A DNA stretch of 64,000 bases, from positions 64,001 through 128,000 of the IMG/VR virus record IMGVR_UViG_2904150443_000004. One strand, given 5' to 3'. A program made the position numbers and the translations under genes. This stretch comes from a virus (lineage: Duplodnaviria; Caudoviricetes). The notes under the pieces were generated by a model, which did not search any database, had not been told where the DNA came from, and worked only from the letters and a program-made list of their open reading frames with translations. This document shows, piece by piece, positions 627-62,837 of the stretch (position 1 is the stretch's first letter; every line of letters begins with the position of its first letter).

Positions 627-683
627 TGAAATTAATGAATATGTAAAGAGTATGAAATCTGATTTTCATTGGAGGAATAAAAT

Positions 684-836
684 ATGAAAGCTAACCAAAT
701 GACTGTTTATGTGGAGTACAAAGGCTCAGAGGTGCGTGTAGAAGTTCCTTGTTCTCAAGACACTCAGTATTATGAAGCACAGGTAAAAGCTCTTAGAATG
801 CTTTCTAATTCGTTTAAGGAGGTTGATGCAGCATGA
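684..836 (+). CDS. small hypothetical protein (50 aa, MKANQMTVYVEY...)
   Basis: GGAGG RBS, ATG 684, stop overlaps the next ATG (ATGA); below the ORF-track cutoff. Confidence 0.7.
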   Translation: MKANQMTVYVEYKGSEVRVEVPCSQDTQYYEAQVKALRMLSNSFKEVDAA

Positions 837-1153
837 CGACTTATACATATCGTTTCATTGAGAAGGACTATTTTCGTTCCATAATAAAAGGAAATTCTGA
901 TTTTCTTGCGGATAATGAAATTGATGAACTCTTAAGTGAGCAAAGAACATGGGAAGATGTAACGATAAAAATAAAAGAAACAAATTTCAGATTAAATACA
1001 GTGTTCATTGATAATATCACTGATGAGGTTATTGAATTTGAGGATATATCAAAGGCTGCTCAGATTTACGCAGAAAATATATTAAGGAAATTACGCAAGA
1101 GCAGGGTGAAATCATTACTCGGCAAAGACTCAACAAGTATTGCTATTGTCTGA
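833..1153 (+). CDS. hypothetical protein
   Basis: AAGGAGG RBS, ORF. Confidence 0.75.
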   Translation: MTTYTYRFIEKDYFRSIIKGNSDFLADNEIDELLSEQRTWEDVTIKIKETNFRLNTVFIDNITDEVIEFEDISKAAQIYAENILRKLRKSRVKSLLGKDSTSIAIV

Positions 1154-1185
1154 AAAGATTCAAAACAAATATAGGAGTGATATTA

Positions 1186-1419
1186 ATGGCGAAATATAGT
1201 TCTGGAGATAAATTCGCGTTGAAAAGTGATCTAAATCGCTCATCTATAATCGAAATAGTTTTTGTTCCACCTATTGATGGACGTGGAATTCAATATTATC
1301 TAATGAGAACAGGAGGAGGAGTAAATACCATAAAAGGAATAGAACATTTATATAAAGAAAGTGAAATTGATGAGCTTTTTATTCTAGTCAAACAGAAGAA
1401 AGAAGGAGAGCCTAATTAA
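1186..1419 (+). CDS. hypothetical protein
   Basis: AGGAGTG RBS, ORF. Confidence 0.65.
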   Translation: MAKYSSGDKFALKSDLNRSSIIEIVFVPPIDGRGIQYYLMRTGGGVNTIKGIEHLYKESEIDELFILVKQKKEGEPN

Positions 1420-1435
1420 TTGAAAAATTAGGCTC
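1408..1435. terminator. hairpin between convergent genes
   Basis: GAGCCTAATT-N8-AATTAGGCTC. Confidence 0.6.
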
Positions 1436-1631
1436 ATTTATTCCATTCGAATTTTAACTCATCGGCAATTAATAAGTGCTCTTTACCTTTCCTACATTCC
1501 ATTGAAGCTTCCATTTTTACTATATCGAATGTTTCTCTAGCATAATTAAGGGCAGCTTCATCACTATCAGCAATAACTGAAAATGAGAAAGGAATAATAA
1601 TATGACCAGACACTTCTCTAAGTTGCTTCAT
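1434..1631 (-). CDS. small hypothetical protein, probably SOS-regulated
   Basis: Minus-strand AGGAG RBS, TGnTATAAT -10 at 1661-1669, and a LexA-type box upstream. Confidence 0.7.
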   Translation of the reverse strand: MKQLREVSGHIIIPFSFSVIADSDEAALNYARETFDIVKMEASMECRKGKEHLLIADELKFEWNK

Positions 1632-1685
1632 TTATTCAACTCCTAGCTTCAAGTAAATTGATTATAGCACGATTATCAAAAGGTG

Positions 1686-1699
1686 CAAACATGTGTTCT
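1686..1699. promoter_or_regulatory. LexA (Cheo) box-like site
   Basis: AGAACACATGTTTG on the minus strand vs Firmicute consensus CGAAC-N4-GTTCG; overlaps the -35 of the leftward promoter. Confidence 0.65.
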
Positions 1700-1722
1700 T
1701 ATAAATGATCTTATTGGACTAA

Positions 1723-1752
1723 TTGACTTTAGATATCTAAATATATTATAAT
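1723..1752 (+). promoter_or_regulatory. sigmaA-like promoter with internal palindromic operator
   Basis: TTGACT-N18-TATAAT, with perfect palindrome TTTAGATATCTAAA at 1728-1741. Confidence 0.7.
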
Positions 1753-1800
1753 AAGACTGTGGAAACATTAGACAATTAAATGCATGTGAGGATGTTCAAA

Positions 1801-2229
1801 ATGATTAGTTATCAACCACTTATTGACCTGATGGAAGAAAGAAATATTAAGTACAAAGATCTCGAATCACTGGGCGGGTTTTCGTCTGCAACACTTGCCA
1901 AGATTGAAAAGGGTAAGTCAGTAACTGCTGATACTTTAGATAGGCTCTGTTTGTTGTTGGGGGTTCCAATTGAGAAGGTAATGAAAATAGTTGGATATGA
2001 AGATAGTAATTCGGAGTTAGCAAATATCGAAGTTAAGAGAAATATCACAAAAAACAAACTGAAGGAGATTAGATCTAAGCATAAATATACACAGGCACAA
2101 TTAGCTGATTTACTTGAAGTAAGCCAGCCGATGATTAGCATGTGGGAAAATGATGATTCTAAGATTCCGAAGGATGCTTGGGAAAAGTTAAGTAGGGTAC
2201 TTAAGTTATCACAAGATGAATCGGAATAA
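1801..2229 (+). CDS. tandem XRE/Cro-C1 HTH transcriptional regulator
   Basis: N-terminal HTH (SSATLAKIEKGKSV...LCLLLGVPIEKVM) and C-terminal HTH (LKEIRSKHKYTQAQLADLLEVSQPMISMWE). Confidence 0.85.
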   Translation: MISYQPLIDLMEERNIKYKDLESLGGFSSATLAKIEKGKSVTADTLDRLCLLLGVPIEKVMKIVGYEDSNSELANIEVKRNITKNKLKEIRSKHKYTQAQLADLLEVSQPMISMWENDDSKIPKDAWEKLSRVLKLSQDESE

Positions 2230-2265
2230 AAGTCTGATTTCATGACAGAAAAAGAGGAGAGAAAT

Positions 2266-3030: not shown

Positions 3031-3095
3031 AGATAAGATGAAACACGGATTTCATAACACTAATATTATAATTAAAAAAAAATGGAGATGTAGTA

Positions 3096-4603: not shown

Positions 4604-4640
4604 GTGCAAGTAAAAGATTGGTTTCATGGGAGGCTTGGAA

Positions 4641-4895
4641 TTGAAATTACCCAAAGAGATAAAAAGTGCAATTCGAAAGAGCGCGAAGCACTATGCAGCA
4701 GCTAGGGAAGCGAATAATATAGTGCGTGATTATCTAGATCAAGTCTTAGGCTCTGATTATTGCGATTCTTCTGCATTCAATAAAGTAGGTCACGATTTCT
4801 TTCTAGATCAGTTAATTGATGGGACGGAGATAGGTTGCGATCCTGAGAATGTAATTAAGTTTTTTGAAAACAACCTACCAGACGAAGATGAATAA
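4641..4895 (+). CDS. hypothetical protein
   Basis: GGAGG RBS; bracketed by palindromes 4610 and 4892. Confidence 0.65.
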   Translation: MKLPKEIKSAIRKSAKHYAAAREANNIVRDYLDQVLGSDYCDSSAFNKVGHDFFLDQLIDGTEIGCDPENVIKFFENNLPDEDE

Positions 4896-4932
4896 AATAC
4901 TAGTTTCATTAAATTTTGAGAGGTGATTTAAG

Positions 4933-5556: not shown

Positions 5557-5633
5557 AGTGACTATGAAAGAGTTTGTTCATAATTTAATCGATCTTTTAT
5601 GTCTAAAATCAAAAGAGGAAGAAGGTTGGTTTA

Positions 5634-6317: not shown

Positions 6318-6764
6318 GTGAAGCTGCATGATTTTGAAATAGATGAGATCAAACGATTGGGATTAGATTTTCGTCAAGCAATAATGTCACTACCACTTAG
6401 TAAATTCCCTAATTCATCATTTTTTGAAAACTTTCCTCGTGGCTGCTGTGGAGATACATGTCACTTGTTTGCAAAGTATCTGATGTTTAAAGGCTATGAG
6501 GTAGATTACGTATGGGGATGGAAGGGGAAGCAATCTCATGCTTGGCTAGAACATAATAATCTAATTGTTGATTTAACTGCCGATCAATTTTCTGATATTG
6601 ATGAAACAGTCGTTGTTACATGTGATAAAAGCTGGTATAACACCATTCAAAAACAACAGAAGAGTGAAGTTGATTTTGAAAAGTTCGACGGTTATAACCA
6701 TGTAAGATTAAAAAAAATTTATAATAACATTCTTGAGATATTACATAACGAGGATGAAACCTGA
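6318..6764 (+). CDS. papain/transglutaminase-fold protein
   Basis: FPRGCCGD, SHAWLE and IVDLTADQF give a Cys-His-Asp triad. Confidence 0.6.
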   Translation: MKLHDFEIDEIKRLGLDFRQAIMSLPLSKFPNSSFFENFPRGCCGDTCHLFAKYLMFKGYEVDYVWGWKGKQSHAWLEHNNLIVDLTADQFSDIDETVVVTCDKSWYNTIQKQQKSEVDFEKFDGYNHVRLKKIYNNILEILHNEDET

Positions 6765-6829
6765 ATTTCATAACTCATTACAACATGTTTTATGAGAACT
6801 ACTATAACTTAATGAGGACGATTAGATCG

Positions 6830-7409: not shown

Positions 7410-7616
7410 ATGGGGTATTTAATAGGAATTTCTTTGTACGTACTGCTTGCAGCTATTCCAATCACAGCTATGATTGCTGCGCTAAGAATGAAGAGGAAAT
7501 TTATCAGAGAGCAGAGAGAAAGAGAAATTAAGTTTGCTATTGAGATGGAAAAATTGTTTGAAATAGATAAGCTTCCAAAAGAGAAACAGGATTCATTCCG
7601 AAAAGCGTTCAAATGA
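7410..7616 (+). CDS. small single-TM protein
   Basis: GGAGG RBS, hydrophobic N-terminus. Confidence 0.6.
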   Translation: MGYLIGISLYVLLAAIPITAMIAALRMKRKFIREQREREIKFAIEMEKLFEIDKLPKEKQDSFRKAFK

Positions 7617-7650
7617 AAACTGACTTTCAATGTATGTGGAGGAAGGTATT

Positions 7651-8022
7651 ATGGAATTATTACTTGAAGAAGATAAACAGTTTTATGGACTTTTCGAAAA
7701 GTACCTGAAAGGCAAATCTGGTAGAATTGAGATTGCCTTAGGAATTGATTATACGATAGACATTAACAATTATGTCGCCTTAGTTGTTGAAGATTGGTAT
7801 GAAGATAAAATACCAATGCTATCAGATTTAAGAAGTAAGAATTGTTACAATACAGATGAAATTTTTTCAATATGGCATAAGTTCACGAAAATAGTTTGCT
7901 GTGATGAAGAAACAAATAAAAGTAATAAAGATGATGAGGATGACCACTTGTCTGATAATTTTGCATTCTCATTGATTTATGATGAAGGTGAAGAGTATAT
8001 GGTTAGTTTTTACTATGAATAA
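7651..8022 (+). CDS. acidic hypothetical protein
   Basis: GGAGG RBS; bracketed by palindromes 7613 and 8019. Confidence 0.65.
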   Translation: MELLLEEDKQFYGLFEKYLKGKSGRIEIALGIDYTIDINNYVALVVEDWYEDKIPMLSDLRSKNCYNTDEIFSIWHKFTKIVCCDEETNKSNKDDEDDHLSDNFAFSLIYDEGEEYMVSFYYE

Positions 8023-8061
8023 AAGTTCACTTTCACTCTGCGCGAAAGGTAGTGATGGGAA

Positions 8062-8283: not shown

Positions 8284-8520
8284 TATTCGACTCTAGAAGT
8301 GCTAAAAAACAATTATCGACCTTTAACTACACATTATAAATGAATATATGAGCACACAGACATATATACGAGTCTACTATAATAGATTATAATGAAATTA
8401 TCTTTTTAAAATTCTTATACATATCTTACATTTGTTTTTTAATGTGAGTATGTATATTTTTTGTTTTTTGTGTTACACTTCATATTATTATGATATTTCG
8501 CTCTTAGAGGAGATGATAGA

Positions 8521-9858
8521 ATGAGTGGAAATGTACAAACGGTTGACCTGTACGAAGTGCTTCCAGATGTGCTTACTGAAGTGAATAAAAACAAAGAAAT
8601 GCAAAGAGATATTGAAGAGATACTTGCAACAAAACATAACATCGCAAGAGGAACATTTGCTGAAATTTTGATAAATAATGGTCGTTTCGACGAAATATTA
8701 AATAACATTGAACGTACAGTCGTTGTTAAAGTTGTGAATGAAATAACTAATGACAATAGAGTGAATCCAAGTAATTTTTACACAAAAACGGAGATCAATA
8801 AAGCAAATAAGTACAAAAGAACAAATGGTGGAGAAGTGTCACTTCCATATACTTTTGAGTCTGTACTGAAGACTTCAGATATTGATTATTTAACCGTTTT
8901 AAGTTACCAAGACATCGCAAAACTTTGGAACTACGGAATTCTAACTTACAATTTCCAATCTCAAAGATTATCCAAGAAAAAAATGAATTCAAAAAATAAA
9001 ATTGTTGAGAAGGCTGATGTTAATTTACGAAGCGTGAAAAACATTGTTAGATTGATGCAAGAGGGCAAATATAGTCCATCAACATTACTATTTAATGTAC
9101 TTGTCGATGGTAAAAGTTCTATTGAATACGAAGATGGAGAACTTACAGTTACCGAAGAAAGTACTATCAACTTAATTGATGGCATGCATCGCGTACAAGC
9201 TATTTTGAAGGTGATTGAAGAGAATCCTGATTTTGAAGGGTATATGAATGTTGATATAAAACATTACACCCTTGAGAAAGCTCAACAGCTCTTAGCCATA
9301 ACAAATATGGTAAACCGTTTTGATAAGACATTGATCAAAAATTATATGGCTGAATCGATTGGCGCGAAGATTACAAAAGATTTGATGACTATAGCTGAAC
9401 TCAAAAATAAAGTGTCTATTAAGACCACTTTAGACAAGAAGCTTAATTACTACACAAACTTTGCAATCTTGTCTGAAGCTATTGAATCTGTATTTGAGCC
9501 TGAAAATACTAAGGATCAGTTCGACTATGCCGATGTTCTTAAAAAGTTCTTCGGTTACATGATCCCCTCATATGAAGAGAAATTCAAAAATAAGAACGAG
9601 GAAATCAAAACAAGTTGGTTTACACATCACAACATGTTCGTAGGTTTTGTAGTGATTGCTAAGAAACTTTATGATAAATACGGAAAAGATTATCCAGTTG
9701 ATGAGATTGTAAGAATTATTGATGGAATAGACTTTTCGAAGAATGAAGATTCTGAACTGAATCAGATTTTGACAACACAAGGGAAAGTAAATAGTAATAA
9801 AGTTAAGAAGAATATTAGAGAGTTTTTTGATACGAAGGTAGACGAGCTGCTTTCATAA
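8521..9858 (+). CDS. DGQHR/DndB-like (ParB-like) protein, SPbeta YopQ-like
   Basis: LIDGMHRVQA motif, 445 aa, immediately upstream of the YopR-like gene. Confidence 0.75.
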   Translation: MSGNVQTVDLYEVLPDVLTEVNKNKEMQRDIEEILATKHNIARGTFAEILINNGRFDEILNNIERTVVVKVVNEITNDNRVNPSNFYTKTEINKANKYKRTNGGEVSLPYTFESVLKTSDIDYLTVLSYQDIAKLWNYGILTYNFQSQRLSKKKMNSKNKIVEKADVNLRSVKNIVRLMQEGKYSPSTLLFNVLVDGKSSIEYEDGELTVTEESTINLIDGMHRVQAILKVIEENPDFEGYMNVDIKHYTLEKAQQLLAITNMVNRFDKTLIKNYMAESIGAKITKDLMTIAELKNKVSIKTTLDKKLNYYTNFAILSEAIESVFEPENTKDQFDYADVLKKFFGYMIPSYEEKFKNKNEEIKTSWFTHHNMFVGFVVIAKKLYDKYGKDYPVDEIVRIIDGIDFSKNEDSELNQILTTQGKVNSNKVKKNIREFFDTKVDELLS

Positions 9859-9891: not shown

Positions 9892-10869
9892 TTGTCTAAT
9901 AAGATATATGAAGATAAATTGTTCAATGAAGATTTAAAATATGAGTTCATCAATCAATATGGATTTGGTACTCAAAAAGTTATTGTTCGCCTATTTAAGG
10001 TTTCTCAAGTAATGGAGTCTGATATGGGAAAGGATATATATGACTTCAATCGTGAGGAATTAAGAAAATTCTTTTTTTATCTTTTACCTAAGACTGAAGC
10101 TGCGAGTAATTCGAATGTCACTTGGATTCAGAAATATATTGAGTGGGCAATTGATGAAGGCTATAAGGAAGGGCTAAACCCTCTCGACATGGTCGATTCA
10201 ACTTGGAAGAAGCAGTTTGCTAATGCTAATCTGAAGCAGCTCTGGACTGACAAAGAGATAGATGAGATTGTTGACCCAACTAAACGTGCTAATTATCAAG
10301 ACGCTGCACTTGTTATGATGCTTTTCTCAGGGATTAAAGGCCAAGGGAACAGTGAAATACTTAGTCTTAGAGAAAAGGATATAAACTTTAAAACAAATGA
10401 AGTGCTATTACACGATGAAGATGGAAGCACAAGGACTACAATCGTAAGTGATAAATGTATTGAATTCATGCGTAAGGCATTAAATGAGACAGAATATGAA
10501 AAGATGAATGGCTTTGCTTCGCCAGATATCAAAGCTCCAACTGCGAAGTTGGTTGAAAATGAATATGTGATCAAGAGTGCAACAACACGCACTATTCACT
10601 TTGAAGAGGCAGATAAGTTCATTGTAAGTAGAAGGATCTCAAAAATTGCAGATGAATTAAATATGCCTACATTTACGCCTACTGCAATCTTTAGAAGTGG
10701 CATGCTCGCACTGGCTAAGGATGCTTACTTGCAGTCTGGTGAGTTAACTGATGACGCAGTAAAAGTGATTCAAGTGAAATTTGGTGGTAGTGGTGACACA
10801 ATCGATTATAGATTGAAGCAAGATTTATTAAATGCAGAACTTGTAAAAGAAGTTTATCAAATACCCTAG
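9892..10869 (+). CDS. tyrosine-recombinase-fold master repressor, SPbeta YopR/MrpR-like
   Basis: 325 aa; KDIYDFNREEL N-terminal domain; degenerate catalytic motifs (FSGIKG for GxR, AIFRSG for HxxR). Confidence 0.8.
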   Translation: MSNKIYEDKLFNEDLKYEFINQYGFGTQKVIVRLFKVSQVMESDMGKDIYDFNREELRKFFFYLLPKTEAASNSNVTWIQKYIEWAIDEGYKEGLNPLDMVDSTWKKQFANANLKQLWTDKEIDEIVDPTKRANYQDAALVMMLFSGIKGQGNSEILSLREKDINFKTNEVLLHDEDGSTRTTIVSDKCIEFMRKALNETEYEKMNGFASPDIKAPTAKLVENEYVIKSATTRTIHFEEADKFIVSRRISKIADELNMPTFTPTAIFRSGMLALAKDAYLQSGELTDDAVKVIQVKFGGSGDTIDYRLKQDLLNAELVKEVYQIP

Positions 10870-13350: not shown

Positions 13351-13411
13351 AATCTCAGAAGTTAATACATAAGCAGTAATGAAAGATAGATTTCATAGTA
13401 AGTTAATCAAT

Positions 13412-15998: not shown

Positions 15999-16027
15999 GG
16001 CTATGAAAGAGATATTTCGTAGCGGAG

Positions 16028-18259: not shown

Positions 18260-18332
18260 GATTTATATCATGATAAAGAAGTCAGACAGGTAAGCGATAA
18301 AAGGAATGTTTCATTAATAAAGAGGTGTTCAT

Positions 18333-20882: not shown

Positions 20883-20906
20883 GGAATACAATAAAAACAA
20901 TATTTC

Positions 20907-21224
20907 ATGAGCCAATCACGAAAGGTGGGGTTTGGAGAAATGAAAATCCATGGAGATGCTAGTGATAATGAAATAAGTATTGAAATTGGAGATATTATTT
21001 CCATAGGAAGCAGTTACTATCTAATTGCTTGGAACTTAAAAGAGTTCCAAAGTGTAAATGGATATCATCATGACGGAATTCGATTAGTTAATTTATCTAC
21101 TAGTACAGTAACAGAGCAGCGTTACGGCAGTATTAGTGAGCTAAAAAGTATCTTGCTTCGTGAAGATAGAAAAGTTGTGATATATGATGGTGAGAGTGTA
21201 GAAATGATTTTATCTAGAAAATAA
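20907..21224 (+). CDS. hypothetical protein
   Basis: ORF. Confidence 0.6.
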   Translation: MSQSRKVGFGEMKIHGDASDNEISIEIGDIISIGSSYYLIAWNLKEFQSVNGYHHDGIRLVNLSTSTVTEQRYGSISELKSILLREDRKVVIYDGESVEMILSRK

Positions 21225-21278
21225 AAAGTTAAAACTATACATATAAATGATGAAATATAGATTTTAAAGGGTGATACT

Positions 21279-22365: not shown

Positions 22366-22399
22366 CATGTAATGAAAGCATCCTTTCATGGGATAGGAG

Positions 22400-23621: not shown

Positions 23622-23864
23622 CTTCAAAAATATCTAAACTACTTCTATCAACGGAATAAAACATATCTTTCATGCAGTGATTAAAATATTTGAGCTAATC
23701 TTCATGATGATGCTAATCATTGCTAGGGGAGTATGTTGATGAAAAATTTTAAAAGTAAAAGATGATACAAAGACGTTCGAGCATAATTGGAATCGAAGAA
23801 AGATGCAAATAGAGTTTGGGATAAGGTTGATGATTGGTTAGACATCTTACAGTAAAAATAAAAT

Positions 23865-24197: not shown

Positions 24198-24408
24198 GAA
24201 AATAACCTCCTTTTACTGGTATACGTTCAATAGCAGTCTAACATACTATAAAAAGGAAATCAATGAAATAATAGACATCTATGGGGTTCCTTACTTCTTA
24301 ATCACATGTGGAGAATAAAGAGTAGAGAGAGTTTAAAAGATTGGTCATTTAGGGGAGTTATTATTAGCTAGAATAAAATCAAATCAAATTTTTATGAGGT
24401 GATATTAA

Positions 24409-24666: not shown

Positions 24667-24981
24667 TTGAAAAAATTTATTTGTGAAGTAGTTAAAAAAG
24701 ATAGGTATGAAATTGAAATCGATGATCAAATGTTAGATGAGGACTGGATGGAGCGTTTTAATTTCTGTAATAGGCTTGAATACGACTGTCTTGAAGAACA
24801 TGCAGTACGCATCTCTAAACATATGTCAAAAAGTTATGACAGTTATATTGATGGATATGGATACCCTCTTATCAATGGGCATAAGCACTATGCTGCGTTT
24901 GATTATCAAGTTGAATCTGGTATAAATATCAAGATTCTCAATGATGAGGATGATATTGAAGTAGATGTTTTTGAGATATAA
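24667..24981 (+). CDS. hypothetical protein
   Basis: GGAGG RBS. Confidence 0.7.
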   Translation: MKKFICEVVKKDRYEIEIDDQMLDEDWMERFNFCNRLEYDCLEEHAVRISKHMSKSYDSYIDGYGYPLINGHKHYAAFDYQVESGINIKILNDEDDIEVDVFEI

Positions 24982-25017
24982 AATTACGTTTTTATCATAC
25001 ATAAGGAGGAATCTGTT

Positions 25018-25311: not shown

Positions 25312-25537
25312 AAAAGTGAATAATATAAATATTGAAAAGGTGTTTGTAAATCAGTTTGGCTCGAAAAAATGGTTCGAAGTTCATTTTAAGTATGATGAAC
25401 AAACTATCAGTATTAATCTTGACCTTGAGGAAATGAAAAAGCTAGGAGTAACAAAGTCTTTGAATGGTACAAAAAAGCTAAGAGAATGGCTAATGTCTGA
25501 TAAAGGCTATGACTATATTAAACGCAGTATGAAATAA
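25301..25537 (+). CDS. hypothetical protein
   Basis: ORF. Confidence 0.55.
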   Translation: MGSKKVNNINIEKVFVNQFGSKKWFEVHFKYDEQTISINLDLEEMKKLGVTKSLNGTKKLREWLMSDKGYDYIKRSMK

Positions 25538-25556
25538 CTATTTCAAAGGAGATTAA

Positions 25557-25849: not shown

Positions 25850-25920
25850 GTAGGTTATAAATTCTTGATTTTATAAAAAAGACAGCCTCACCGTAGCAAG
25901 ACCGCCTTAACCAAATCTAT

Positions 25921-26582: not shown

Positions 26583-26610
26583 ATATCTAATGAAATAGGA
26601 ATTTGATAAG

Positions 26611-29648: not shown

Positions 29649-29882
29649 GTGAATCCAATGAAAATTATATGTAAAGGTCAAATAAAAGGTTCGTTTCGGG
29701 GCTGGAAAAATAGAGACACGGAATATCAATTTGTAAGCGGCGAGAAGTGGAGGCAAGAAGAATACCATTATCATTATCACTATTCTTACTATCCAAATGC
29801 GAAGGTAATTCAAACAGCAAGAGGTTTCGAAATGCATGTTGATGGATTGAATTTTGGAATGCTTGTTAAGAGAGTGTATTGA
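29649..29882 (+). CDS. hypothetical protein
   Basis: ORF. Confidence 0.6.
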   Translation: MNPMKIICKGQIKGSFRGWKNRDTEYQFVSGEKWRQEEYHYHYHYSYYPNAKVIQTARGFEMHVDGLNFGMLVKRVY

Positions 29883-29911
29883 AATATCGTTTTTATGGGG
29901 AGAGGTAAAGG

Positions 29912-30130: not shown

Positions 30131-30161
30131 TAAAATTGGCATTTTATAAGGAGAAATATAT

Positions 30162-34045: not shown

Positions 34046-34239
34046 GCCTATTAATTAAAGAGTATAAAATATGACTTTTATATAGTTTTATATGTATAGT
34101 AATTATTTTTATCAGTTGGGTATTAGAATGAAAACTAAAATCTATCACTGTGACGAACAAGAATTGGTTAAGATTAAGGGGGAATTCAAGTATCTTGAAT
34201 CAAAAGATGTAAGAATATATTCATATAGAGGTGTCATAA

Positions 34240-35466: not shown

Positions 35467-35862
35467 TTAAGCAAGAGCCAGCTAAAAAATAGAGTAAATG
35501 CATCCATACTCTGTTTGCTGATTACTGGCTTTTGTATAGAAATACAAACCAGAGATTTATGAAATGCGAATTTTATATTGACTACATGTTTGGAGGATAG
35601 TAATATGATTTTAGCTTGTTATGGTATGATGGTGGTGCATTTAATACCGCAACAGGGCATTATGAACCATTCTTTGTTTTCTTTGGTCGGAAAACAAAGG
35701 AAGCCGCCATATAGGATTAGTTCTGAAAGTGGCGGTTTTAATATAGGTATAAATATAAAATATGATACAATACATTATTAATTAATGAATATCAAGCAAT
35801 ATAATACACTAAAAATCTCTATTTTTAAATGAAAGTTTAGGATATGAAAAGGAGGAATAGTA

Positions 35863-36323: not shown

Positions 36324-36506
36324 ATGGAAAAAGTGTTTAAAAACATCAATAAATTTGATCTGTATAACTTACAAGGTAAAACTCTGACATTTAAGCTCAC
36401 CAAAGATGTTATGGAGGATGGTGTTTATGAATGTATGGTTGGAATTGATTTAAGTAATAAGAGTGCATACATATTTGATACACGATATCAAAAAAATGAA
36501 ATGTAA
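36324..36506 (+). CDS. hypothetical protein
   Basis: ORF. Confidence 0.55.
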   Translation: MEKVFKNINKFDLYNLQGKTLTFKLTKDVMEDGVYECMVGIDLSNKSAYIFDTRYQKNEM

Positions 36507-36536
36507 TAAAACAGACATTTCAATGGAGGTGATTCG

Positions 36537-38127: not shown

Positions 38128-38337
38128 GTGCATATGATAGTTGAAACTAAACTAAGTGACGACTTTGAAGTTGATTTTATTCGAGAAACTAACAATAGAA
38201 ATAGTGAATGTATGGTTATTGGCACAGAAGCAAATCTAATTTACATACACATGACTGAAGAACGCTTCAAGAGTTTCATACAAACAGCAAATAATGCGCT
38301 AATTGAATATCAGAAGCAGCATACTAAGAGGATATAA
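38128..38337 (+). CDS. hypothetical protein
   Basis: ORF. Confidence 0.6.
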   Translation: MHMIVETKLSDDFEVDFIRETNNRNSECMVIGTEANLIYIHMTEERFKSFIQTANNALIEYQKQHTKRI

Positions 38338-38365
38338 AACTTAAATTTCATTAGGGGGTAATGAT

Positions 38366-43158: not shown

Positions 43159-44187
43159 ATAAATGCTTCTGACCTGAAGGATAAAATAATTCAAGATGAT
43201 AAAGTTAAGGATATAGTCAACGCATTGGGCTGCTCTAATTTTAGAAAAGGAACTAGTTATTATACATGCTCCAATCCAGATGGAGATGCAAGAGCAGCCA
43301 TAAATATCAATATTGAAAATCTTAGTGTTATGAATCACACTCGAAATGATTTTCCAAAAGAACGTGCAGATATTATTACCTTAGTTGAATACATAAAAGA
43401 TTTCTACTTTACAAAAGCAATGAATTGGATCTGTGAGGTATGTGGGTACGATTATTATCATGGAGATTTTGAAAAAGAAAAAATTGATGATCCCTGTTTA
43501 TTAGCGCTCGATGTTATAGAGTCAAAAACACTAGACAAGGAAATTGAATTAAGAAAATTAGATGATAGGATATTATTTGAGTATGTGCAGTATCCTCACA
43601 TTCTTTTTTTGCAAGAGGGAATATCATTAGATGTACAAAAATTATTTGAGGTTGGTTACTCAGTTAGAGATAGTTGCATAACAATTCCTATCAGGGACGA
43701 GTTAGGAAGTTTGGTTGGTGTTAAAGGGCGAACCACACTTGATTATGAGAAGTTGAAAATGTCTAAATATTGGTTCCCTTACGCAACTCCCAAATCACAA
43801 ATACTCTATGGGCTAGATAAATCGTATCAGTTCATAAAGGATTCAGGCAAAGTATTAGTTTATGAAGCTGAAAAAAGTGTTCAAAAAAGCTTCTCTTACA
43901 ATATAAAAAATTGTGTCAGTATAGGTGGACATATACTTAGTGAAACACAGGTTATGAAGCTAGAGAAGTTAGGAGTAGATGTAATCCTCGCCTTCGACAA
44001 GAATGTGACTGCTGAAGAAATAAAGGATGAGGCAAGGAAATTTATTATTCCAGAAAAAGTTTATACGATTTTTGAGCAAAAGAATAAACTTCTCGACGAA
44101 AAGGATGCTCCAGTTGATAAGGGAAGAGATATATTTATCCAACTGCTTACAACAGAAACATATAGAGCACTAAAGCAAGGGGAATGA
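43159..44187 (+). CDS. DNA primase (YorJ-like)
   Basis: IPIRD..G.LVGVKGR, LYGL, YEAEKSV, TOPRIM AFDK, KDAPVD; probable ATA start at 43159. Confidence 0.85.
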   Translation: MNASDLKDKIIQDDKVKDIVNALGCSNFRKGTSYYTCSNPDGDARAAININIENLSVMNHTRNDFPKERADIITLVEYIKDFYFTKAMNWICEVCGYDYYHGDFEKEKIDDPCLLALDVIESKTLDKEIELRKLDDRILFEYVQYPHILFLQEGISLDVQKLFEVGYSVRDSCITIPIRDELGSLVGVKGRTTLDYEKLKMSKYWFPYATPKSQILYGLDKSYQFIKDSGKVLVYEAEKSVQKSFSYNIKNCVSIGGHILSETQVMKLEKLGVDVILAFDKNVTAEEIKDEARKFIIPEKVYTIFEQKNKLLDEKDAPVDKGRDIFIQLLTTETYRALKQGE

Positions 44188-44199
44188 AACTACTCTTTC

Positions 44200-44280
44200 A
44201 TAGCCAATGATCCAATAAGATAAAATATATAAATACATATAAAATATCTGTTGACTGATCATTGGCTATTCTGATACAGT
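44200..44280 (+). promoter_or_regulatory. sigmaA-like promoter with 13-bp inverted repeat
   Basis: TTGACT-N18-TACAGT; ATAGCCAATGATC (44200-12) / GATCATTGGCTAT (44257-69). Confidence 0.55.
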
Positions 44281-45751: not shown

Positions 45752-45991
45752 ATGAATAGTTTAAAACGGATGCTTCAGTTGTATCTTCAACTAGAAGAGA
45801 TTGAAAACGAAATTGCGGAATGTGAATCAAATCTCCTTGGATCAGAAATTAAGTATGGGGAATATGGGCTCTGCACGATTATTTTTATTGATGGGAATTA
45901 TGCAACTTTAGCCTGTGAATCAGATGATGACGATGATGATGATGATGATCGTCATGAAATTGAGGTTTCATTAGAGGAACTAGTTAAATAA
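45752..45991 (+). CDS. acidic hypothetical protein with poly-Asp
   Basis: (GAT)n tract. Confidence 0.6.
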   Translation: MNSLKRMLQLYLQLEEIENEIAECESNLLGSEIKYGEYGLCTIIFIDGNYATLACESDDDDDDDDDRHEIEVSLEELVK

Positions 45992-46801: not shown

Positions 46802-46846
46802 GATTTAAGGGAGCATGAAACACGAATTTCATGAGGAGATGATTGA

Positions 46847-47487: not shown

Positions 47488-47729
47488 TACTAGAGCAAGA
47501 GGGGGGAATATTGAGTGATAGACATCAAAAAGTGTATAGGGTGTTCAGAGTTTGCTCATATGGACGACATGTGCCAATGTGAAAAGACGGGATTTTGGAT
47601 ATGTTCCAATTGTGATCATCTACTTAAAGTTACAGTGAATACTGAAGGTGAGCATGTGTATATATTGAAAGATTAGTATTACGAATTCATCTTAGAGAAA
47701 TGAAGTCCCTATAAAGTAGTGATTTCATT

Positions 47730-51214: not shown

Positions 51215-51330
51215 TAATAAAAGAATAATTTCATAATATAAATAAAATATCACTATCAATACATATAAATAAGTGGTATAATCTCCTTGTATAAATTGTA
51301 ATACATATTATTACAAGGAGTGATTATATA

Positions 51331-52590: not shown

Positions 52591-53022
52591 ATGTTTATAG
52601 AATGCTACGGAGATTATACAATTGTTGGTAGAATTAGTGATGTGTTTTATATAGAAGGGGTAGAATCTTTAGAAGAGCTTCAGGAGATTATAAAGAGCAA
52701 GACACCAATTGAATGTTGGGAACCAACAATGTATGACAAAGGACGTATTGCATATTCAGAAGGTTTGAGAAAAAGAATTGTTTATCTAAATAACTACATG
52801 AAAATTAAACAAAGACACTTTTATCTTCTAGATCAAAATGAAAGAAAAGAAATTGAAAATAAAGTTTGTAAAACATGTAAATGTAATGATGGTTCTTTTA
52901 CTGGAGCACTAAGCTGTAACTATCATGCCAGTTCAAATGAGGGCTGTTTGAATTACGAAAAATCGCTATATGCATCTGCAATAAGTTGGCTAAAAGGTGG
53001 AAAATCAGGTGATAAAACATGA
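52591..53022 (+). CDS. hypothetical protein
   Basis: ORF. Confidence 0.65.
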   Translation: MFIECYGDYTIVGRISDVFYIEGVESLEELQEIIKSKTPIECWEPTMYDKGRIAYSEGLRKRIVYLNNYMKIKQRHFYLLDQNERKEIENKVCKTCKCNDGSFTGALSCNYHASSNEGCLNYEKSLYASAISWLKGGKSGDKT

Positions 53023-53040
53023 GTTTCATAGGGGGCAACA

Positions 53041-54199: not shown

Positions 54200-54739
54200 T
54201 TGAATAATGTTTGGTTCATATCAGACCCACATTTTGGACACAAGAATATCATAAAATATGAAAATCGTCCTTTTGTAGATGTGGAGCATATGGATAATGT
54301 AATTATTGAAAACTATAATAAAACTGTTAATGATGGAGATATGGTATTCTGGTTGGGAGATATGTTTTTTTGCAACGCTAAAAGAATCGATTACATCTCA
54401 AATCGCCTTAAAAGCACAAGAAACATATTAATTAGAGGTAACCATGACAAGGGGATTACTGATGGGAAATTTAAAAAGCTTGGCTTCATGCCGTATAAAA
54501 TGTATCAGTGGGGAAATTGTATCTTGACACATGAACCACTTTCCGAAGTGAATTTGAACTATTTAAAAGATATCGGAATCTGGCTAAACATACATGGACA
54601 TACCCATTCAGAAAATCAGCACCTAGATCCCAAAAAATACTTTTGTGCATCGGTTGAGAATACAGATTATAGGCCTATTAATGCAACAGAGATTGAAATA
54701 AAAGTTATTTCGGCTTCTAAACGTAAAAGAATGCAATAA
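54200..54739 (+). CDS. calcineurin-like metallophosphoesterase
   Basis: SDPHFGH, LGD, GNHD, HGHTH. Confidence 0.9.
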   Translation: MNNVWFISDPHFGHKNIIKYENRPFVDVEHMDNVIIENYNKTVNDGDMVFWLGDMFFCNAKRIDYISNRLKSTRNILIRGNHDKGITDGKFKKLGFMPYKMYQWGNCILTHEPLSEVNLNYLKDIGIWLNIHGHTHSENQHLDPKKYFCASVENTDYRPINATEIEIKVISASKRKRMQ

Positions 54740-54829
54740 AAGATTCATTTTAAGAGGTGTCGATTTTGAGTATCAAAATGTTGCATATAACTTTGCAATT
54801 AAAAAACATAAGTAAAGGGGAGTAAAACA

Positions 54830-55051: not shown

Positions 55052-55076
55052 AAAATAATAAATATAAATAAAAATA

Positions 55077-55106
55077 TTGATTTATGTTAATTAAAACTGT
55101 TATGAT
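55077..55106 (+). promoter_or_regulatory. sigmaA-like promoter
   Basis: A-rich UP element, TTGATT-N18-TATGAT with TGn. Confidence 0.55.
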
Positions 55107-57032: not shown

Positions 57033-57080
57033 TAAGAGAATAAAATTTGAATTTTATGAGGAAAGGTATGAAACTAAATC

Positions 57081-57498: not shown

Positions 57499-57800
57499 TG
57501 AAGATGGAGTTTAATCTGAGAGTTGGAGACGATGGTATGCCTTGTATTCATGCATCAGTGGTAGGAAGTGGAGTTGTTTACCCAAGGGGAGATCATCGAT
57601 TTGAATATTCAAAGCAAAATATGTATATGAGTGAATACAAAATAAAAGGTTGCCAAGATCAGAGACGATTTATCATTTCCATAAGACTAGATGGAATAGA
57701 TGGGAAATGCAAACTAACACAAATGAACTTTCGTCATGATGACATGTTGGAACTTAGGAACAAAATTGATGAATTACTCAGGTATAAGGCGACACGATGA
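57495..57800 (+). CDS. hypothetical protein
   Basis: ATGA-coupled ORF. Confidence 0.6.
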   Translation: MMKMEFNLRVGDDGMPCIHASVVGSGVVYPRGDHRFEYSKQNMYMSEYKIKGCQDQRRFIISIRLDGIDGKCKLTQMNFRHDDMLELRNKIDELLRYKATR

Positions 57801-57812
57801 AAGAAGAGTTTT

Positions 57813-58127
57813 ATGGAGAAAGAGGTGAGAAATATTCCAGAGTTTATCTATGAAACTAAAAACGGTAAATACTCATTTGAAGACACAGGAAGTTGTATCG
57901 TTATTTGGAGGAATGGTAGGAAATGGGGATCACCACCGATGGATGGTGCACTAAGATCAGTAATCAATGATTTAATTGAACTTAGAGAAGAAAACTGTAG
58001 GCTTAAAGAAGAGTTGAGTGACTATACGAGAAAACTGATTAATGCTCGATCATCAACTGCTATACCGTTTCATAAGATGAGCGAGAAGGCTCGACGAGAG
58101 ACGGTCGAAGCAATGCTTGATGAATAA
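57813..58127 (+). CDS. hypothetical protein
   Basis: Bracketed by palindromes 57797 and 58131. Confidence 0.6.
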   Translation: MEKEVRNIPEFIYETKNGKYSFEDTGSCIVIWRNGRKWGSPPMDGALRSVINDLIELREENCRLKEELSDYTRKLINARSSTAIPFHKMSEKARRETVEAMLDE

Positions 58128-58166
58128 TTTTTGAAAGAGGATTTTCATGAGGGAAGGAGATTATAA

Positions 58167-59003: not shown

Positions 59004-59135
59004 ATGAAAGCAGATAATGCGTTTTTATCAGCCTTAATCAATAAGCTTCAGGAAATAAGTGATAATACATGTGATCTAAATACCCAAACTGAGATAGATG
59101 AATTGATTGAAGCTGCTGTTAACTCATTAGAATAA
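59004..59135 (+). CDS. small hypothetical protein (43 aa)
   Basis: AAGGAGG RBS; stop lies in palindrome 59132. Confidence 0.6.
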   Translation: MKADNAFLSALINKLQEISDNTCDLNTQTEIDELIEAAVNSLE

Positions 59136-59164
59136 AATAACCATTTCAAAGGAGGAAAGACAAT

Positions 59165-60024: not shown

Positions 60025-60435
60025 ATGAAAGCAAAGTTTCATGGTATTGAAGTAGAAGGAACAGTAGAGGAAATTGTAAAACTGAAGAGCATTCTTGATG
60101 GACAAAGGAAAAAGGATACCGTTATTTATCATACAGTAACTTTACAAAATTCAAAAGAATGTGATTCTCTAGTTAAAGCTATTCAAGAATCACTTTCACA
60201 GCATATGAATTCCTTTAAAAAGCAGAATACTCATAGTTCTATGAAATGTTCTTGCAATGTGTTAGATGACATTGAAAAACTAAAAGAAGAATTCAATCTT
60301 TTAAAGAATGAGCTCGGTAACAAAGCAGATAAAGGGCATACTCATTCGGTATCCATTAATAATCACAATCATGGGAATCCACAAAATCTACAAGGTGGTG
60401 GAGGAACGTATATTACTTCTGTAGATCAGGTTTAG
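60025..60435 (+). CDS. hypothetical protein
   Basis: GGAGG RBS. Confidence 0.65.
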   Translation: MKAKFHGIEVEGTVEEIVKLKSILDGQRKKDTVIYHTVTLQNSKECDSLVKAIQESLSQHMNSFKKQNTHSSMKCSCNVLDDIEKLKEEFNLLKNELGNKADKGHTHSVSINNHNHGNPQNLQGGGGTYITSVDQV

Positions 60436-60443
60436 TTAATAAG

Positions 60444-60896
60444 ATAACAGTTTTTGATGTTGCAAATTTCTTCATACATAGATCACATTCTACTCGTAGG
60501 CCAATTGATGTACTGAAGTTACAATGCCTTTGCTATTACGCTCAAGCTTGGAGCTTGGTGTTTAATAATAAGCAGCTCTTTACTAGCACTTTTCAAGCAA
60601 CAGAAAGTGGTGTGCTAAATATGGAGCTGTATAAAAAGTACAGACATTTTGGATGGAATGGAATACCAGATGTAGAATGTGTGAGCGATATTTATACTGA
60701 TGATGAATTATGCTTACTTTACGAGGTATGGGATGTATACGGTAAAGAGGATCGAATGTTCTTGAAAAACTTTGTTCAAACTGAAGCTCCTTGGCTTAAG
60801 GCTGTACGAAATAAACATGGCGAGAGGATTATTAATGAGTATGACATGACGAAGTATTATGGCTCATTAGTAAACAAAATAATAGAGGTTGATTAA
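60444..60896 (+). CDS. Panacea/SocA (DUF4065)-like antitoxin-domain protein
   Basis: Frame extends upstream of the track start: TVFDVANFF...LKLQCLCYYAQAWSL...LF...YG...EAPW; start uncertain. Confidence 0.7.
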   Translation: MTVFDVANFFIHRSHSTRRPIDVLKLQCLCYYAQAWSLVFNNKQLFTSTFQATESGVLNMELYKKYRHFGWNGIPDVECVSDIYTDDELCLLYEVWDVYGKEDRMFLKNFVQTEAPWLKAVRNKHGERIINEYDMTKYYGSLVNKIIEVD

Positions 60897-61083
60897 TGTG
60901 GGATACATTGAAGCGATAGCTAATGTTGATTCATTAAGGAGAAGCATTAGAGAACTTTCGCAAATCTCTTGGGATGAAGTCTTATCACACGTCCCTGAGT
61001 CATATGATTTGTTAAATGAGGTTCAGCAGTATATTAAAAGTATCGATGACTCGTCCAAAGAACTTGAGCTGTTTTTCAAATGA
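60889..61083 (+). CDS. hypothetical protein
   Basis: ORF. Confidence 0.55.
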   Translation: MINVGYIEAIANVDSLRRSIRELSQISWDEVLSHVPESYDLLNEVQQYIKSIDDSSKELELFFK

Positions 61084-61121
61084 AATCATGTTTCTATTTT
61101 ATTAATGAAAGGGAAATTAGA

Positions 61122-61901
61122 TTGAATAGTCCAATTAAATGGGTTGGTGGAAAGTCAAGAATGGTTAAAAAGATGATTCCACTAATTCCTAATCATAAAG
61201 GGTATGTTGAAGTTTTTGGAGGAGCAGCATATTTACTATTCGGCAAGGATAGATCTAACTGGGAGATTGTTAATGATTTAGATAATGGTCTAATGAACTT
61301 TTGGTTTGTAGTTAAGAATGCAAAAGAAGAATTTCTAAATAGCTTCAAGTACACATTAATCAGCCGAGAGACATTCAATGATTATAAAAAGAAATGGAAA
61401 ACTGGTAATATTCATGATTCAATTGAAAGAGCACATGTATTCTATTATCTAGTAAATGCAGGCTTTGGGGCTGATATGAAGAATCCTGTTTTCGGGACAA
61501 AAAAAGATAAATTTCCATTGCAGCTAGATAAAATTCATCGAGATATTGATGAAGCCTATGAAAGAATTAAAACTGTGGTAATTGAACAATTAGATTTTAG
61601 AAAATGCATAGAAAAGTACGACAGCGACGACACTTTCTTTTATATCGATAGCCCATATAGAAACACTAAAGAGTATGCTGTGGGAAAGTTTACAGACAAT
61701 GATTATGAAGATTTATATCGTATTTGTAAAAACTGCAAGGGAAAGTGGCTTTATACAATAAACAATGATGAATACATAAGAGATTTATTCAAAGAATTCA
61801 ACATAATTAATCATGAAGTTTATTATAGCGTTTGTAAAACAAACAGCGGAAGACAGGAATTTAAAGAGTTAATTATTACTAACTATGATATAACAGAATA
61901 A
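61122..61901 (+). CDS. Dam-like N6-adenine DNA methyltransferase
   Basis: WVGGK, YVEVFGGA, IVNDLD, FYIDSPY (DPPY variant), ELIITNY. Confidence 0.88.
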   Translation: MNSPIKWVGGKSRMVKKMIPLIPNHKGYVEVFGGAAYLLFGKDRSNWEIVNDLDNGLMNFWFVVKNAKEEFLNSFKYTLISRETFNDYKKKWKTGNIHDSIERAHVFYYLVNAGFGADMKNPVFGTKKDKFPLQLDKIHRDIDEAYERIKTVVIEQLDFRKCIEKYDSDDTFFYIDSPYRNTKEYAVGKFTDNDYEDLYRICKNCKGKWLYTINNDEYIRDLFKEFNIINHEVYYSVCKTNSGRQEFKELIITNYDITE

Positions 61902-61938
61902 AATTAATCTTTTATTAGTTAATAAAAATATAAGGAGA

Positions 61939-62244
61939 ATGGTTATGGACAATAAAACTCTAAATGCAAATAACATTGAGGATGCAAAAGCAAAGATTTC
62001 TGATATCGAAGTGTATGGTAATGGAGATACGTTTGAACTGTTGTGCAAGGCAAGCTCTGAATCTCAGGGCTGGATGAAATCGACAAAGGTATGTAATTTG
62101 CCGAATGGATGCTTAGTGCAAGTATCAACCCAACAAAAAAATGTAGACGGTAGTTATAGTGTGGCTGAGGCAATAACATTTGTCCCTGATGTGAAGATGA
62201 TTCACTTTGATGGTTGTAATCCTCGCCTTGTTTCTTTGCAGTGA
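61939..62244 (+). CDS. conserved phage protein
   Basis: GWMKSTK...VQVSTQQ...AEAITFVP. Confidence 0.7.
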   Translation: MVMDNKTLNANNIEDAKAKISDIEVYGNGDTFELLCKASSESQGWMKSTKVCNLPNGCLVQVSTQQKNVDGSYSVAEAITFVPDVKMIHFDGCNPRLVSLQ

Positions 62245-62354
62245 AGCAGAAGTAAATAAGGAGGGTAATAGAATAGTGGTGTCAAGAACGAATTAGAACT
62301 GATTAGGGAACACGATATTTATATTAACCGATAAAAAAGGAGCTGTTTGGGATT

Positions 62355-62561
62355 ATGGAAAAATTGATAGTTAGTGAACTGAACAGATTGCAAGATGATT
62401 ATTTTGACGCTCAGGAAGAACTATTTTATCACAAAAATAAGTACAATGAATATCGTGATGAGTGTGTAAAAATTATAGAAGAAATTCGTAAAAACCTAAT
62501 ACGATTGCATGATATTAATCCAGCCAATGAATATGAGATTGAATCTGAAATTATCCTTTAG
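62355..62561 (+). CDS. hypothetical protein
   Basis: ORF. Confidence 0.55.
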   Translation: MEKLIVSELNRLQDDYFDAQEELFYHKNKYNEYRDECVKIIEEIRKNLIRLHDINPANEYEIESEIIL

Positions 62562-62573
62562 TCAAAATGATAC

Positions 62574-62837
62574 TTGGCTTATATGATAATGAAACAGTTC
62601 TTTTATAAGGGGGTGATACTACTGAATAAGTGTAAATTTGAGGTGGGGCACAATTATGGAAACTTGGATAACTCAATTGATTACTACAAAGAAAACCATG
62701 AGAGTGACATTATTTTTATTAAAGATACATCCGGAGCGATAGTTTCATTTAATCTTGATGAGGCCAAGAGTGTGATTCAGCGACTAGATGAACTTATTTA
62801 TGACGTAATGAGAGGTGTGCAACAGGAGGGACGCTAA
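62574..62837 (+). CDS. hypothetical protein
   Basis: ORF; true start probably downstream of palindrome 62589. Confidence 0.55.
   Translation: MAYMIMKQFFYKGVILLNKCKFEVGHNYGNLDNSIDYYKENHESDIIFIKDTSGAIVSFNLDEAKSVIQRLDELIYDVMRGVQQEGR

Follow-up and report, generated by a model that had tools for sequence, protein, structure and literature searches.

Bases 64001-128000 of the 146,367-bp provirus record IMGVR_UViG_2904150443_000004 (34% G+C), a stretch of 64,000 nucleotides referred to here as the window, carry many copies of an 18-base palindrome, ATRAAA-N6-TTTYAT, which consists of two 6-bp arms and a 6-bp spacer and lies mainly at gene junctions. The phage is a large, SPbeta-like prophage of Bacillus type. 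The motif is a clade-wide element of the large siphophages of Bacillales that encode the repressor MrpR, in which it is kept in short intergenic gaps, and in two related groups of these phages the ends of homology between genomes coincide with it. We tentatively read it as a double-stranded DNA site to which a dimeric phage protein would bind and which would serve as a fixed joint in the exchange of genes. Phage genomes are mosaic, with seams at gene ends, and it has been debated whether special linkers or random breaks followed by selection account for these seams. A defined 18-bp element that is present in the model phage SPbeta and in a wide clade, and that lies on a large share of the seams in two groups, makes this question testable in Bacillus subtilis with standard genetics, and offers a possible role for two conserved recombinase genes that lack one.

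Abundance, architecture and placement of the palindrome

In the window there are 28 perfect copies, compared with 0.31 on average and at most 4 in 100 dinucleotide shuffles, and 25 copies with one mismatch, of which about 6 would be expected by chance (scaled from 13.3 per genome). A preliminary description of the window had counted 25 and 22 copies, respectively, and had estimated fewer than one perfect copy per 64 kb by chance; the abundance is real. In the whole record, 44 perfect and 38 one-mismatch copies stand against 0.7 and 13.3 in 30 second-order Markov simulations, and copies with two mismatches are at background (95 against 138 simulated). Single arms are common in the record (465 and 272 copies), and 0.86 pairs would be expected per spacing; 44 pairs occur at N6 and 0-2 at each other spacer length from 0 to 24, while everted and direct arrangements of the arms, counted as a control, gave 0-6 copies. 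The excess of arm pairs was limited to N6 in all five phages scanned.

Beyond the 6-bp arms, the copies hold at most 0.35 bit of information. The spacer sequence varies from copy to copy, as had been described, with a symmetric avoidance of A at position 7 (2 of 44) and of T at position 12 (3 of 44). At positions 3/16, the only variable pair of the arms, the combinations G/C, G/T, A/C and A/T occur 12, 10, 14 and 8 times in this genome; the two positions are independent (p 0.76), as they are in Perkons (p 0.75), and this is what two independent half-sites would predict. Together with the strict spacing and the symmetry, this independence points to a dimer on double-stranded DNA. At position 3 this phage has G as often as A, and phages of B. 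subtilis nearly always have ATAAAA/TTTTAT. Among all 199 unique perfect copies of ten phages, self-complementary spacers are depleted: 47 copies have complementary bases at positions 7/12, where 65.9 would be expected, and 38 have them at positions 8/11, where 53.3 would be expected. The palindrome appears to be held back from inward growth, a weak hint at a need for an asymmetric centre. At the junctions of SPbeta, phi3T, SPbetaL3, SPbetaL4 and BUCT083, all Spbetavirus, conservation extends beyond the 18 bp, with a TCTAA-like stop context 5' and an ACAGAA and ribosome-binding-site context 3' of the motif; the right arm there often ends in A instead of T, and the element is asymmetric relative to gene direction.

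Gene calls, which were made for this analysis and are crude (coding fraction 0.79), place 29 of the 53 perfect or one-mismatch copies in intergenic gaps, 19 across a gene end and 5 inside open reading frames (ORFs). The earlier statement that all copies are intergenic or at junctions is therefore correct for 48 of the 53, the exceptions being those that start at 10063, 16248, 27599, 45954 and 60025 (Table 1). Most copies have a stop codon on their 5' side and a ribosome-binding site on their 3' side, and the median distance from a copy to the next start is 23.5 nt. The upstream stop codon coincides with motif positions 2-4 in 13 of the 53 copies; 14 had been reported, and all eight examples named at the time were confirmed. 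Exactly one called gene occupies 17 of the 47 intervals between consecutive sites, and the seven single genes previously described as bracketed by two sites all fit the ORF list. The segments 38334-44184 (helicase-primase) and 47711-51217 are free of sites, as is the YopQ/MrpR/AgrB-like block at 8392-13379 save for a probable chance copy at 10063, in agreement with what had been stated. In the whole genome, 37 of the 44 perfect copies lie outside ORFs, a proportion resembled by those of nine other genomes; only 6 of the 44 fall in the first 37 kb, and the minus-strand late block is poor in sites. The copy at 13379 lies upstream of a tRNA-Met gene, which shows that the motif is not tied to a ribosome-binding site. 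The copy at 27599 is one of the few inside a long ORF.

Table 1. Copies of ATRAAA-N6-TTTYAT and associated genes, in window coordinates
Feature	Position	Strand	Remark
YopQ-like gene, Pfam DndB	8521..9858	+	Pfam; synteny with other phages
MrpR (YopR) homologue, recombinase-fold repressor	9892..10869	+	Pfam PF22822 and PF22823
tRNA-Met (CAT) and tRNA-Arg (CCT)	13412-13562		Rfam; directly 3' of motif copy 13379
Perfect copy	652..669		Intergenic; next start 14 nt on
Perfect copy	2226..2243		Upstream stop at motif positions 2-4
Perfect copy	3038..3055		Intergenic
Perfect copy	4892..4909		Stop in left arm
Perfect copy	6754..6771		Upstream ORF 6318-6764 terminates inside
Perfect copy	13379..13396		15 nt 5' of tRNA-Met (13412)
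Perfect copy	18297..18314		Intergenic
Perfect copy	20891..20908		Intergenic
Perfect copy	22372..22389		Intergenic
Perfect copy	23656..23673		Intergenic
Perfect copy	24978..24995		Stop in left arm
Perfect copy	27599..27616		Inside Y-family (DinB-like) polymerase gene 27017-28252; exception to junction rule
Perfect copy	30130..30147		At gene end
Perfect copy	31248..31265		Upstream stop in spacer
Perfect copy	32911..32928		Directly after upstream stop
Perfect copy	34064..34081		Intergenic
Perfect copy	35559..35576		Intergenic
Perfect copy	38334..38351		Stop in left arm; last site 5' of helicase-primase block
Perfect copy	44184..44201		Left arm holds stop of Toprim/primase-like gene
Perfect copy	45954..45971		Inside 3' end of small ORF 45752-45991
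Perfect copy	46815..46832		Intergenic by refined calls
Perfect copy	51217..51234		2 nt past upstream stop
Perfect copy	53012..53029		Upstream ORF terminates inside
Perfect copy	57040..57057		Intergenic
Perfect copy	57797..57814		Stop in left arm
Perfect copy	60025..60042		Left-arm ATG is start codon of ORF 60025-60435
Perfect copy	61898..61915		Left arm holds stop of D12 methyltransferase gene
Perfect copy	62589..62606		Intergenic by refined calls
One-mismatch copy	4610..4627		Intergenic
One-mismatch copy	5564..5581		Intergenic
One-mismatch copy	7613..7630		Stop in left arm
One-mismatch copy	8019..8036		Stop in left arm
One-mismatch copy	8392..8409		5' of YopQ-like gene
One-mismatch copy	start 10063		Inside ORF, probably chance
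One-mismatch copy	16003..16020		Intergenic
One-mismatch copy	start 16248		Inside ORF, probably chance
One-mismatch copy	21250..21267		Intergenic
One-mismatch copy	24378..24395		Intergenic
One-mismatch copy	25529..25546		At gene end
One-mismatch copy	25857..25874		Intergenic; possibly chance
One-mismatch copy	26590..26607		Intergenic
One-mismatch copy	29879..29896		Stop in left arm
One-mismatch copy	30693..30710		
One-mismatch copy	31472..31489		Intergenic
One-mismatch copy	31724..31741		At gene end
One-mismatch copy	32121..32138		Stop in left arm
One-mismatch copy	36506..36523		At gene end
One-mismatch copy	47711..47728		Intergenic
One-mismatch copy	54736..54753		Stop in left arm
One-mismatch copy	55068..55085		Overlaps -35 of repeated promoter; may be chance
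One-mismatch copy	58131..58148		Intergenic
One-mismatch copy	59132..59149		Intergenic
One-mismatch copy	61080..61097		Stop in left arm

Distribution among phages and breakpoints in relatives

Perfect copies were counted in 18 MrpR-encoding phage records, with the reversed pattern as the control. At least 12 copies were found in 17 of the 18, against 0-3 for the control: this phage 44 (control 3), Perkons 38 (2), FADO 30 (1), PJN02 28 (0), 2S-4 28 (0), PK-3 26 (0), E3 24 (0), Tsamsa 21 (0), BUCT083 19 (2), SPbetaL4 18 (2), Nate 18 (0), Skywalker 17 (0), phi3T 16 (2), SPbetaL3 16 (2), BUCT082 15 (0), SPbeta 14 (1), KKP_3916 12 (0) and Sundance 3 (0). All 18 records were picked through MrpR homology, and a link between the motif and MrpR that is drawn from this set is therefore circular. 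There was no enrichment in five unrelated phages found through the helicase, namely phage G (6 copies, control 7) and Shanette, CampHawk, 0305phi8-36 and a Staphylococcus contig (0 copies each). Perfect copies lie mostly outside ORFs in all ten genomes classified, as in FADO (29 of 30) and E3 (22 of 24). Annotators should be aware that the motif is a landmark of the clade and differs from the known repressor operator. We found no description of it in a literature search whose coverage excluded supplements and the 1999 SPbeta genome paper, so that an earlier description is possible. The passages searched in PMC10516654, PMC13245101, PMC8270828, 10.1101/2021.11.22.469490 and 10.1101/2020.05.06.055103 do not mention the motif.

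When two stretches of the window were compared with phage records by megablast and blastn, no close relative of its phage was found. Scans seeded with peptides of MrpR and of the helicase found none in viral contigs or genome contigs, and a single 31%-identical match in metagenome contigs; a six-sequence MrpR alignment was too diverged for seeding a scan, and a sequencing run (X2) gave only pieces of 37-56 nt with low likeness, which are uninformative on relatives or habitat. Another run (X1) may be where this DNA came from. Since no close relative was reachable, the breakpoint test was run on three related groups; E3 and Perkons also lack close relatives in the phage collection and hence were not included. 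Breakpoints were defined as the ends of BLAST homology, and a breakpoint was assigned to a motif when it fell between -3 and +20 of the motif start.

The first group comprised the Spbetavirus phages SPbeta, phi3T, BUCT082, BUCT083, SPbetaL3 and SPbetaL4, which share 44-70% of their DNA. Here, 152 of 1433 unique breakpoints were assigned to motifs, against 12.4 (maximum 25) for random positions. Homology ends cluster at motif positions 16-18 and homology starts at -1 to +1; these outer arm edges are compatible with exchange at either edge of the centre and are no proof of it. Among intergenic gaps of 18-120 bp, a breakpoint occurred in 62 of 84 with the motif as against 84 of 266 without it (odds ratio 6.1), an excess that holds in each genome and in the three gap-size classes of at least 30 bp (the 18-30 bp class has only one motif gap). 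When each motif gap was set against the nearest motif-free gap, the comparison came out 36 to 8 for the motif.

The spacers of these sites behave like addresses. Of 204 Spbetavirus junction pairs, 136 show a site at the matching position of the partner genome too, 117 of them with the same spacer, regardless of which side is conserved. Cross-genome pairs of equal spacers number 303 (16.4 expected), and in 66 pairs, representing 22 spacers, the same 18-mer is present with neither 200-bp flank similar; 55 of the 66 are syntenic within 6 kb. These pairs indicate that a site stays at its address with its own spacer while the genes on both sides differ.

In the FADO-like group (FADO, PJN02, 2S-4 and PK-3; 96.5-99.3% identity), 29 of 378 breakpoints were assigned to motifs as against 2.6 for random positions, and a breakpoint occurred in 45 of 72 motif gaps as against 49 of 253 motif-free gaps (odds ratio 6.9). 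Replacements and indels that end at the motif are thus seen in Spbetavirus and FADO-like phages, where the earlier expectation that gene gain and loss would break at the sites is borne out; no such link is seen in the third, Tsamsa-like group (Tsamsa, Nate and Skywalker; 17-21 copies each), where that expectation fails.

A proposed joint for gene exchange and its alternatives

In the reading that we favour, though with less than even confidence, each copy would represent two independent ATRAAA half-sites, exactly 6 bp apart on double-stranded DNA, that are recognised by a dimer of a phage-encoded protein. Co-resident relatives would exchange DNA at the site; its neighbouring genes on both sides would be subject to replacement, gain or loss, and the 18-mer would stay at its address together with its own spacer. 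The binder might be one of the clade's tyrosine recombinases, of the YopP or YomM type, and the exchange might be aided by this protein or by the stretch of some 30 bp in which equal-spacer sites are identical; the phage of the window would exchange genes in the same way. The retention of the motif across very distant phages, including a group without an exchange signal, argues that it probably has a direct role in each phage, and the breakpoint excess and address-like spacers in two groups argue that it is also a place of exchange.

Several observations weigh against this reading. The evidence for exchange comes entirely from relatives and not from the window's own phage, and the breakpoint counts rest on crude gene calls and BLAST ends and pool orthologous junctions across genomes, so that p-values overstate independence. 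The matched-neighbour control gives a weak result in the FADO-like group (16 against 10, p 0.33). Tsamsa-like phages show no signal, with 5 of 588 breakpoints assigned to motifs against 2.5 for random positions and a breakpoint in 3 of 26 motif gaps against 67 of 233 motif-free gaps, yet they carry genes of both the YopP and the YomM type; in some phages at least, the motif must therefore owe its maintenance to something other than exchange. Replaced segments have sites at both ends no more often than by chance (16 against 18.6, and 12 against 17.7). Only 6 bp are conserved per arm, which is short for the arm of a tyrosine-recombinase site. With regard to the candidate enzymes, the YomM type has Lys at the position of XerD's second catalytic Arg (HxxK) in four of four aligned sequences, and it is absent from KKP_3916, which still has its 12 motif copies.

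Three recombinase-fold genes are present in the genome: that of MrpR and those of the YopP type (37228-38256 of the record) and the YomM type (16160-17173 of the record, minus strand, in the late block), the latter two outside the window. Relatives of the YopP type are present in each of the nine genomes examined; four of four aligned sequences retain HxxR and Tyr, and KKP_3916 has Lys. The YomM type is by far the best-conserved shared protein, being 62-66% identical to its counterparts in Perkons, E3 and phi3T as against 22-40% for most other shared proteins, and it has homologues in Tsamsa, Nate and FADO and only a weak one in Sundance. Integration is performed by a serine recombinase in SPbeta (PMC10516654) and in Perkons, and the accessible part of the Perkons report leaves the tyrosine enzymes unexplained. 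A search for YopQ in Tsamsa, Nate, Sundance, FADO and KKP_3916 detected none but had no positive control among these records, so that YopQ as the binder is only weakened. No profile points to a single binder.

Equal-spacer sites of Spbetavirus share about 30-35 bp, including the conserved stop and ribosome-binding contexts, so that the address specificity could also result from ordinary recombination through short homology, which the sequence data do not distinguish from site-specific exchange. A stricter version, in which the 6-bp centre would be the address and a YopP- or YomM-type recombinase would exchange DNA only between equal-address sites, as a natural cassette exchange, seems to us rather doubtful. 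If it were true, co-resident SPbeta-like phages could swap genes slot by slot while keeping gene order and without deleting parts of themselves.

An alternative that we consider unlikely is a roadblock or operator array similar to the stoperators of cluster A mycobacteriophages, in which a protein made in the lysogen would sit on the sites and stop read-through of host RNA polymerase in early and middle genes. The mosaic joints would then be short shared gene-end sequences that survive selection, and recombination would be a by-product, as with the promoter-early stem-loops (PeSLs) of T4-type phages. The retention of the motif in Tsamsa-like phages speaks for a first-order function in each phage, and the scarcity of sites in the minus-strand late block also suits this alternative. 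Stoperators likewise occur in tens of copies throughout a temperate genome and outside promoters (PMC9283540), a trait that the motif shares with its many copies in short intergenic gaps genome-wide, and its density, short-gap placement and stop-codon overlap resemble theirs. In addition, transcripts of yopP, yopQ and yopR are made while the SPbeta prophage is dormant (10.1101/2021.11.22.469490). However, stoperators are asymmetric 13-bp sites of a monomeric repressor that stop elongation (PMC9283540), whereas the motif is strictly palindromic around 6 bp of free sequence. MrpR gave ten peaks in SPbeta by chromatin affinity precipitation sequencing (ChAP-seq), all of them at a different element, SPBRE (PMC10516654), and YopQ was not detected in the five motif-bearing phages named above. 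Furthermore, twelve shared bases alone hardly explain the 66 site pairs with both flanks unrelated, nor the 2- to 4-fold excess over neighbouring gaps, which share a ribosome-binding site too.

PeSLs resemble the motif in being short repeats between non-essential genes of variable regions, at which replacements and indels between close relatives end (PMC2839356). They differ in comprising a strong promoter and a terminator stem-loop, whereas the motif is an 18-bp unit that lacks a promoter, folds at 0 to -4.1 kcal/mol and keeps its own spacer at each site. PeSLs also recombine with each other to give deletions and mini-circles (PMC2839356), and deletions between two motif sites account for 0 of 63 Spbetavirus indels.

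The preliminary description had proposed an integron- or pdif-like capture system and, as alternatives, an operator of the recombinase-fold repressor or an RNA hairpin, and none of the three finds support in the results. Capture in the first sense, with two-site single genes excised as circles and inserted elsewhere by a tyrosine recombinase, is improbable. Inverted arms around a centre of 6-8 bp are the geometry of tyrosine-recombinase core sites, including dif/pdif and integron attC, and the motif, with its 6-bp centre, shares both this geometry and the variability of the centre. The single-gene intervals between sites and the presence of tyrosine recombinases with no assigned role would also suit capture, as would the gene-sized indels that abut a site at one end at least in 16 of 35 FADO-like and 21 of 63 Spbetavirus cases. 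Nevertheless, sites at both ends were found in only 4 of 35 FADO-like and 0 of 63 Spbetavirus indels, and none of 38 Tsamsa-like indels had a site at either end. In the one of the four FADO-like cases that was inspected, the 503-bp insert with a reverse-strand ORF starts one base past the right arm of a perfect site and the second site lies in the shared flank, so that it is no two-site cassette. The same two addresses are kept in both genomes by 3 of 14 replaced segments in Spbetavirus and 2 of 3 in FADO-like phages.

Comparison of the genome with itself by BLAST revealed only promoter repeats of about 60-80 bp, and neither duplicated cassettes nor rearrangements between sites. None of the three recombinase-fold genes adjoins the site array, which thus lacks the adjacent integrase-attI platform of an integron, although no further search for an attI-like platform was made; there is no integron integrase with attI and no attC-like structure, attC structures being 57-141 bp long and folded. 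The pdif comparison fails at the arms: the 6-bp centre is present, but the arms of about 11 bp for XerC and XerD are not, given the low information outside the 6-bp arms, and a symmetric site permits no XerC/XerD alternation. The picture is one of single crossovers at fixed joints, and not of excision and insertion of two-site cassettes.

It is very improbable that the motif is the operator of the MrpR homologue in the window, and this homologue is probably not its binder. The known operator of this repressor, SPBRE, reportedly received its name in the 1999 SPbeta genome paper. Like the motif, it is a repeated palindrome of the same phage group, its binder has a tyrosine-recombinase fold, and it is a 15-bp motif found at the promoters that carry the ten MrpR ChAP-seq peaks of SPbeta (PMC10516654). 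In seven SPbeta promoter regions SPBRE is a AATACAAAWAATATGTAT-like element with no arm in common with ATRAAA-N6-TTTYAT, and it has about ten promoter copies as against 14-44 gene-junction copies of the motif, most of which lie between a stop and a ribosome-binding site rather than in promoter regions; we therefore rejected the motif as a form of SPBRE. None of the 14 perfect motif copies of SPbeta is among the MrpR peaks reported in the accessible part of PMC10516654, and the motif does not change among phages that have only 26-32% identity between their MrpR proteins. In favour of the operator, every motif-bearing phage encodes an MrpR homologue (by choice of the records), MrpR has the recombinase fold according to both Pfam and PMC10516654, and this genome has no convincing SPBRE, the pattern ATACA-N3..11-TGTAT giving 1 match. 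A separate AATACATAG element was observed in the leaders of first genes, after a -10-like box and before the ribosome-binding site (window 52562; positions 45704, 46948, 48793 and 49334 of the record, outside the window). It resembles one half of SPBRE and may be the MrpR operator of this phage, but the word also occurs inside many genes and is only a lead.

An RNA hairpin in the polycistronic mRNA, acting in processing, stability or translation control, would suit the position just 5' of ribosome-binding sites and the complementarity of five of the six arm positions, but we regard it as extremely improbable and, judging from the sequences, the motif does not seem to be a selected hairpin, because the sole variable pair (3/16) shows no covariation and is an A/C mismatch in 14 of 44 copies, of ten copies folded as RNA, four form no structure and the other six give only -0.2 to -4.1 kcal/mol, the stem extends neither outward nor inward, Rfam matches only the two tRNAs, and copy 13379 precedes a tRNA gene.

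Gene context of the window

Genes of the window lie almost all on the plus strand, and the best protein matches of its phage in phage collections are 26-34% identical. The YopQ-like gene and the MrpR homologue of Table 1 are the yopQ-yopR pair of SPbeta-like phages, which, usually with a yopP-type integrase upstream, also occurs in phi3T, Geobacillus E3, Alicyclobacillus KKP_3916 and Psychrobacillus Perkons. An AgrB-like protein (10960-11481, E 2.6e-7) and a weakly matching LytTR-like protein (12395-12895, E 0.0016, under the Pfam cut-off) are encoded 3' of the MrpR homologue; they are a possible peptide-signalling module, and SPbeta carries its arbitrium genes at that place. Further genes encode a UvrD-like helicase, a DnaB-like protein, a Toprim protein, a RecJ-like protein, a Y-family polymerase (27017-28252), a D12 methyltransferase and ribonucleotide reductase.

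Four copies of a 60-80 bp repeat (window 36241-36300 and 55041-55106; positions 45610-45691 and 48712-48793 of the record, outside the window) hold a strong sigma-A-type promoter (TTGACT, 17 bp, TATAAT) and an A/T-rich upstream part, and are probably the early promoters of long plus-strand operons. The motif itself was rejected as a promoter, since these TTGACT-17-TATAAT promoters are separate elements of about 80 bp and the motif unit contains no -35 or -10 box. A YonO promoter or terminator was likewise rejected: the accessible published account gives one late start site, 5' of yonK, which does not fit tens of sites in the early region.

Two other genes deserve mention. A protein of 185 amino acids (3096-3653) combines two domains, a treble-clef zinc finger (DUF4379) and an RNA polymerase alpha C-terminal domain, and was not found in four phages compared; it is possibly a phage factor that mimics or competes with the alpha C-terminal domain. 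An actin-like gene (ALP/ParM-type, 51331-52272), which follows a motif copy and a promoter-like region, hints at a function in segregation or positioning.

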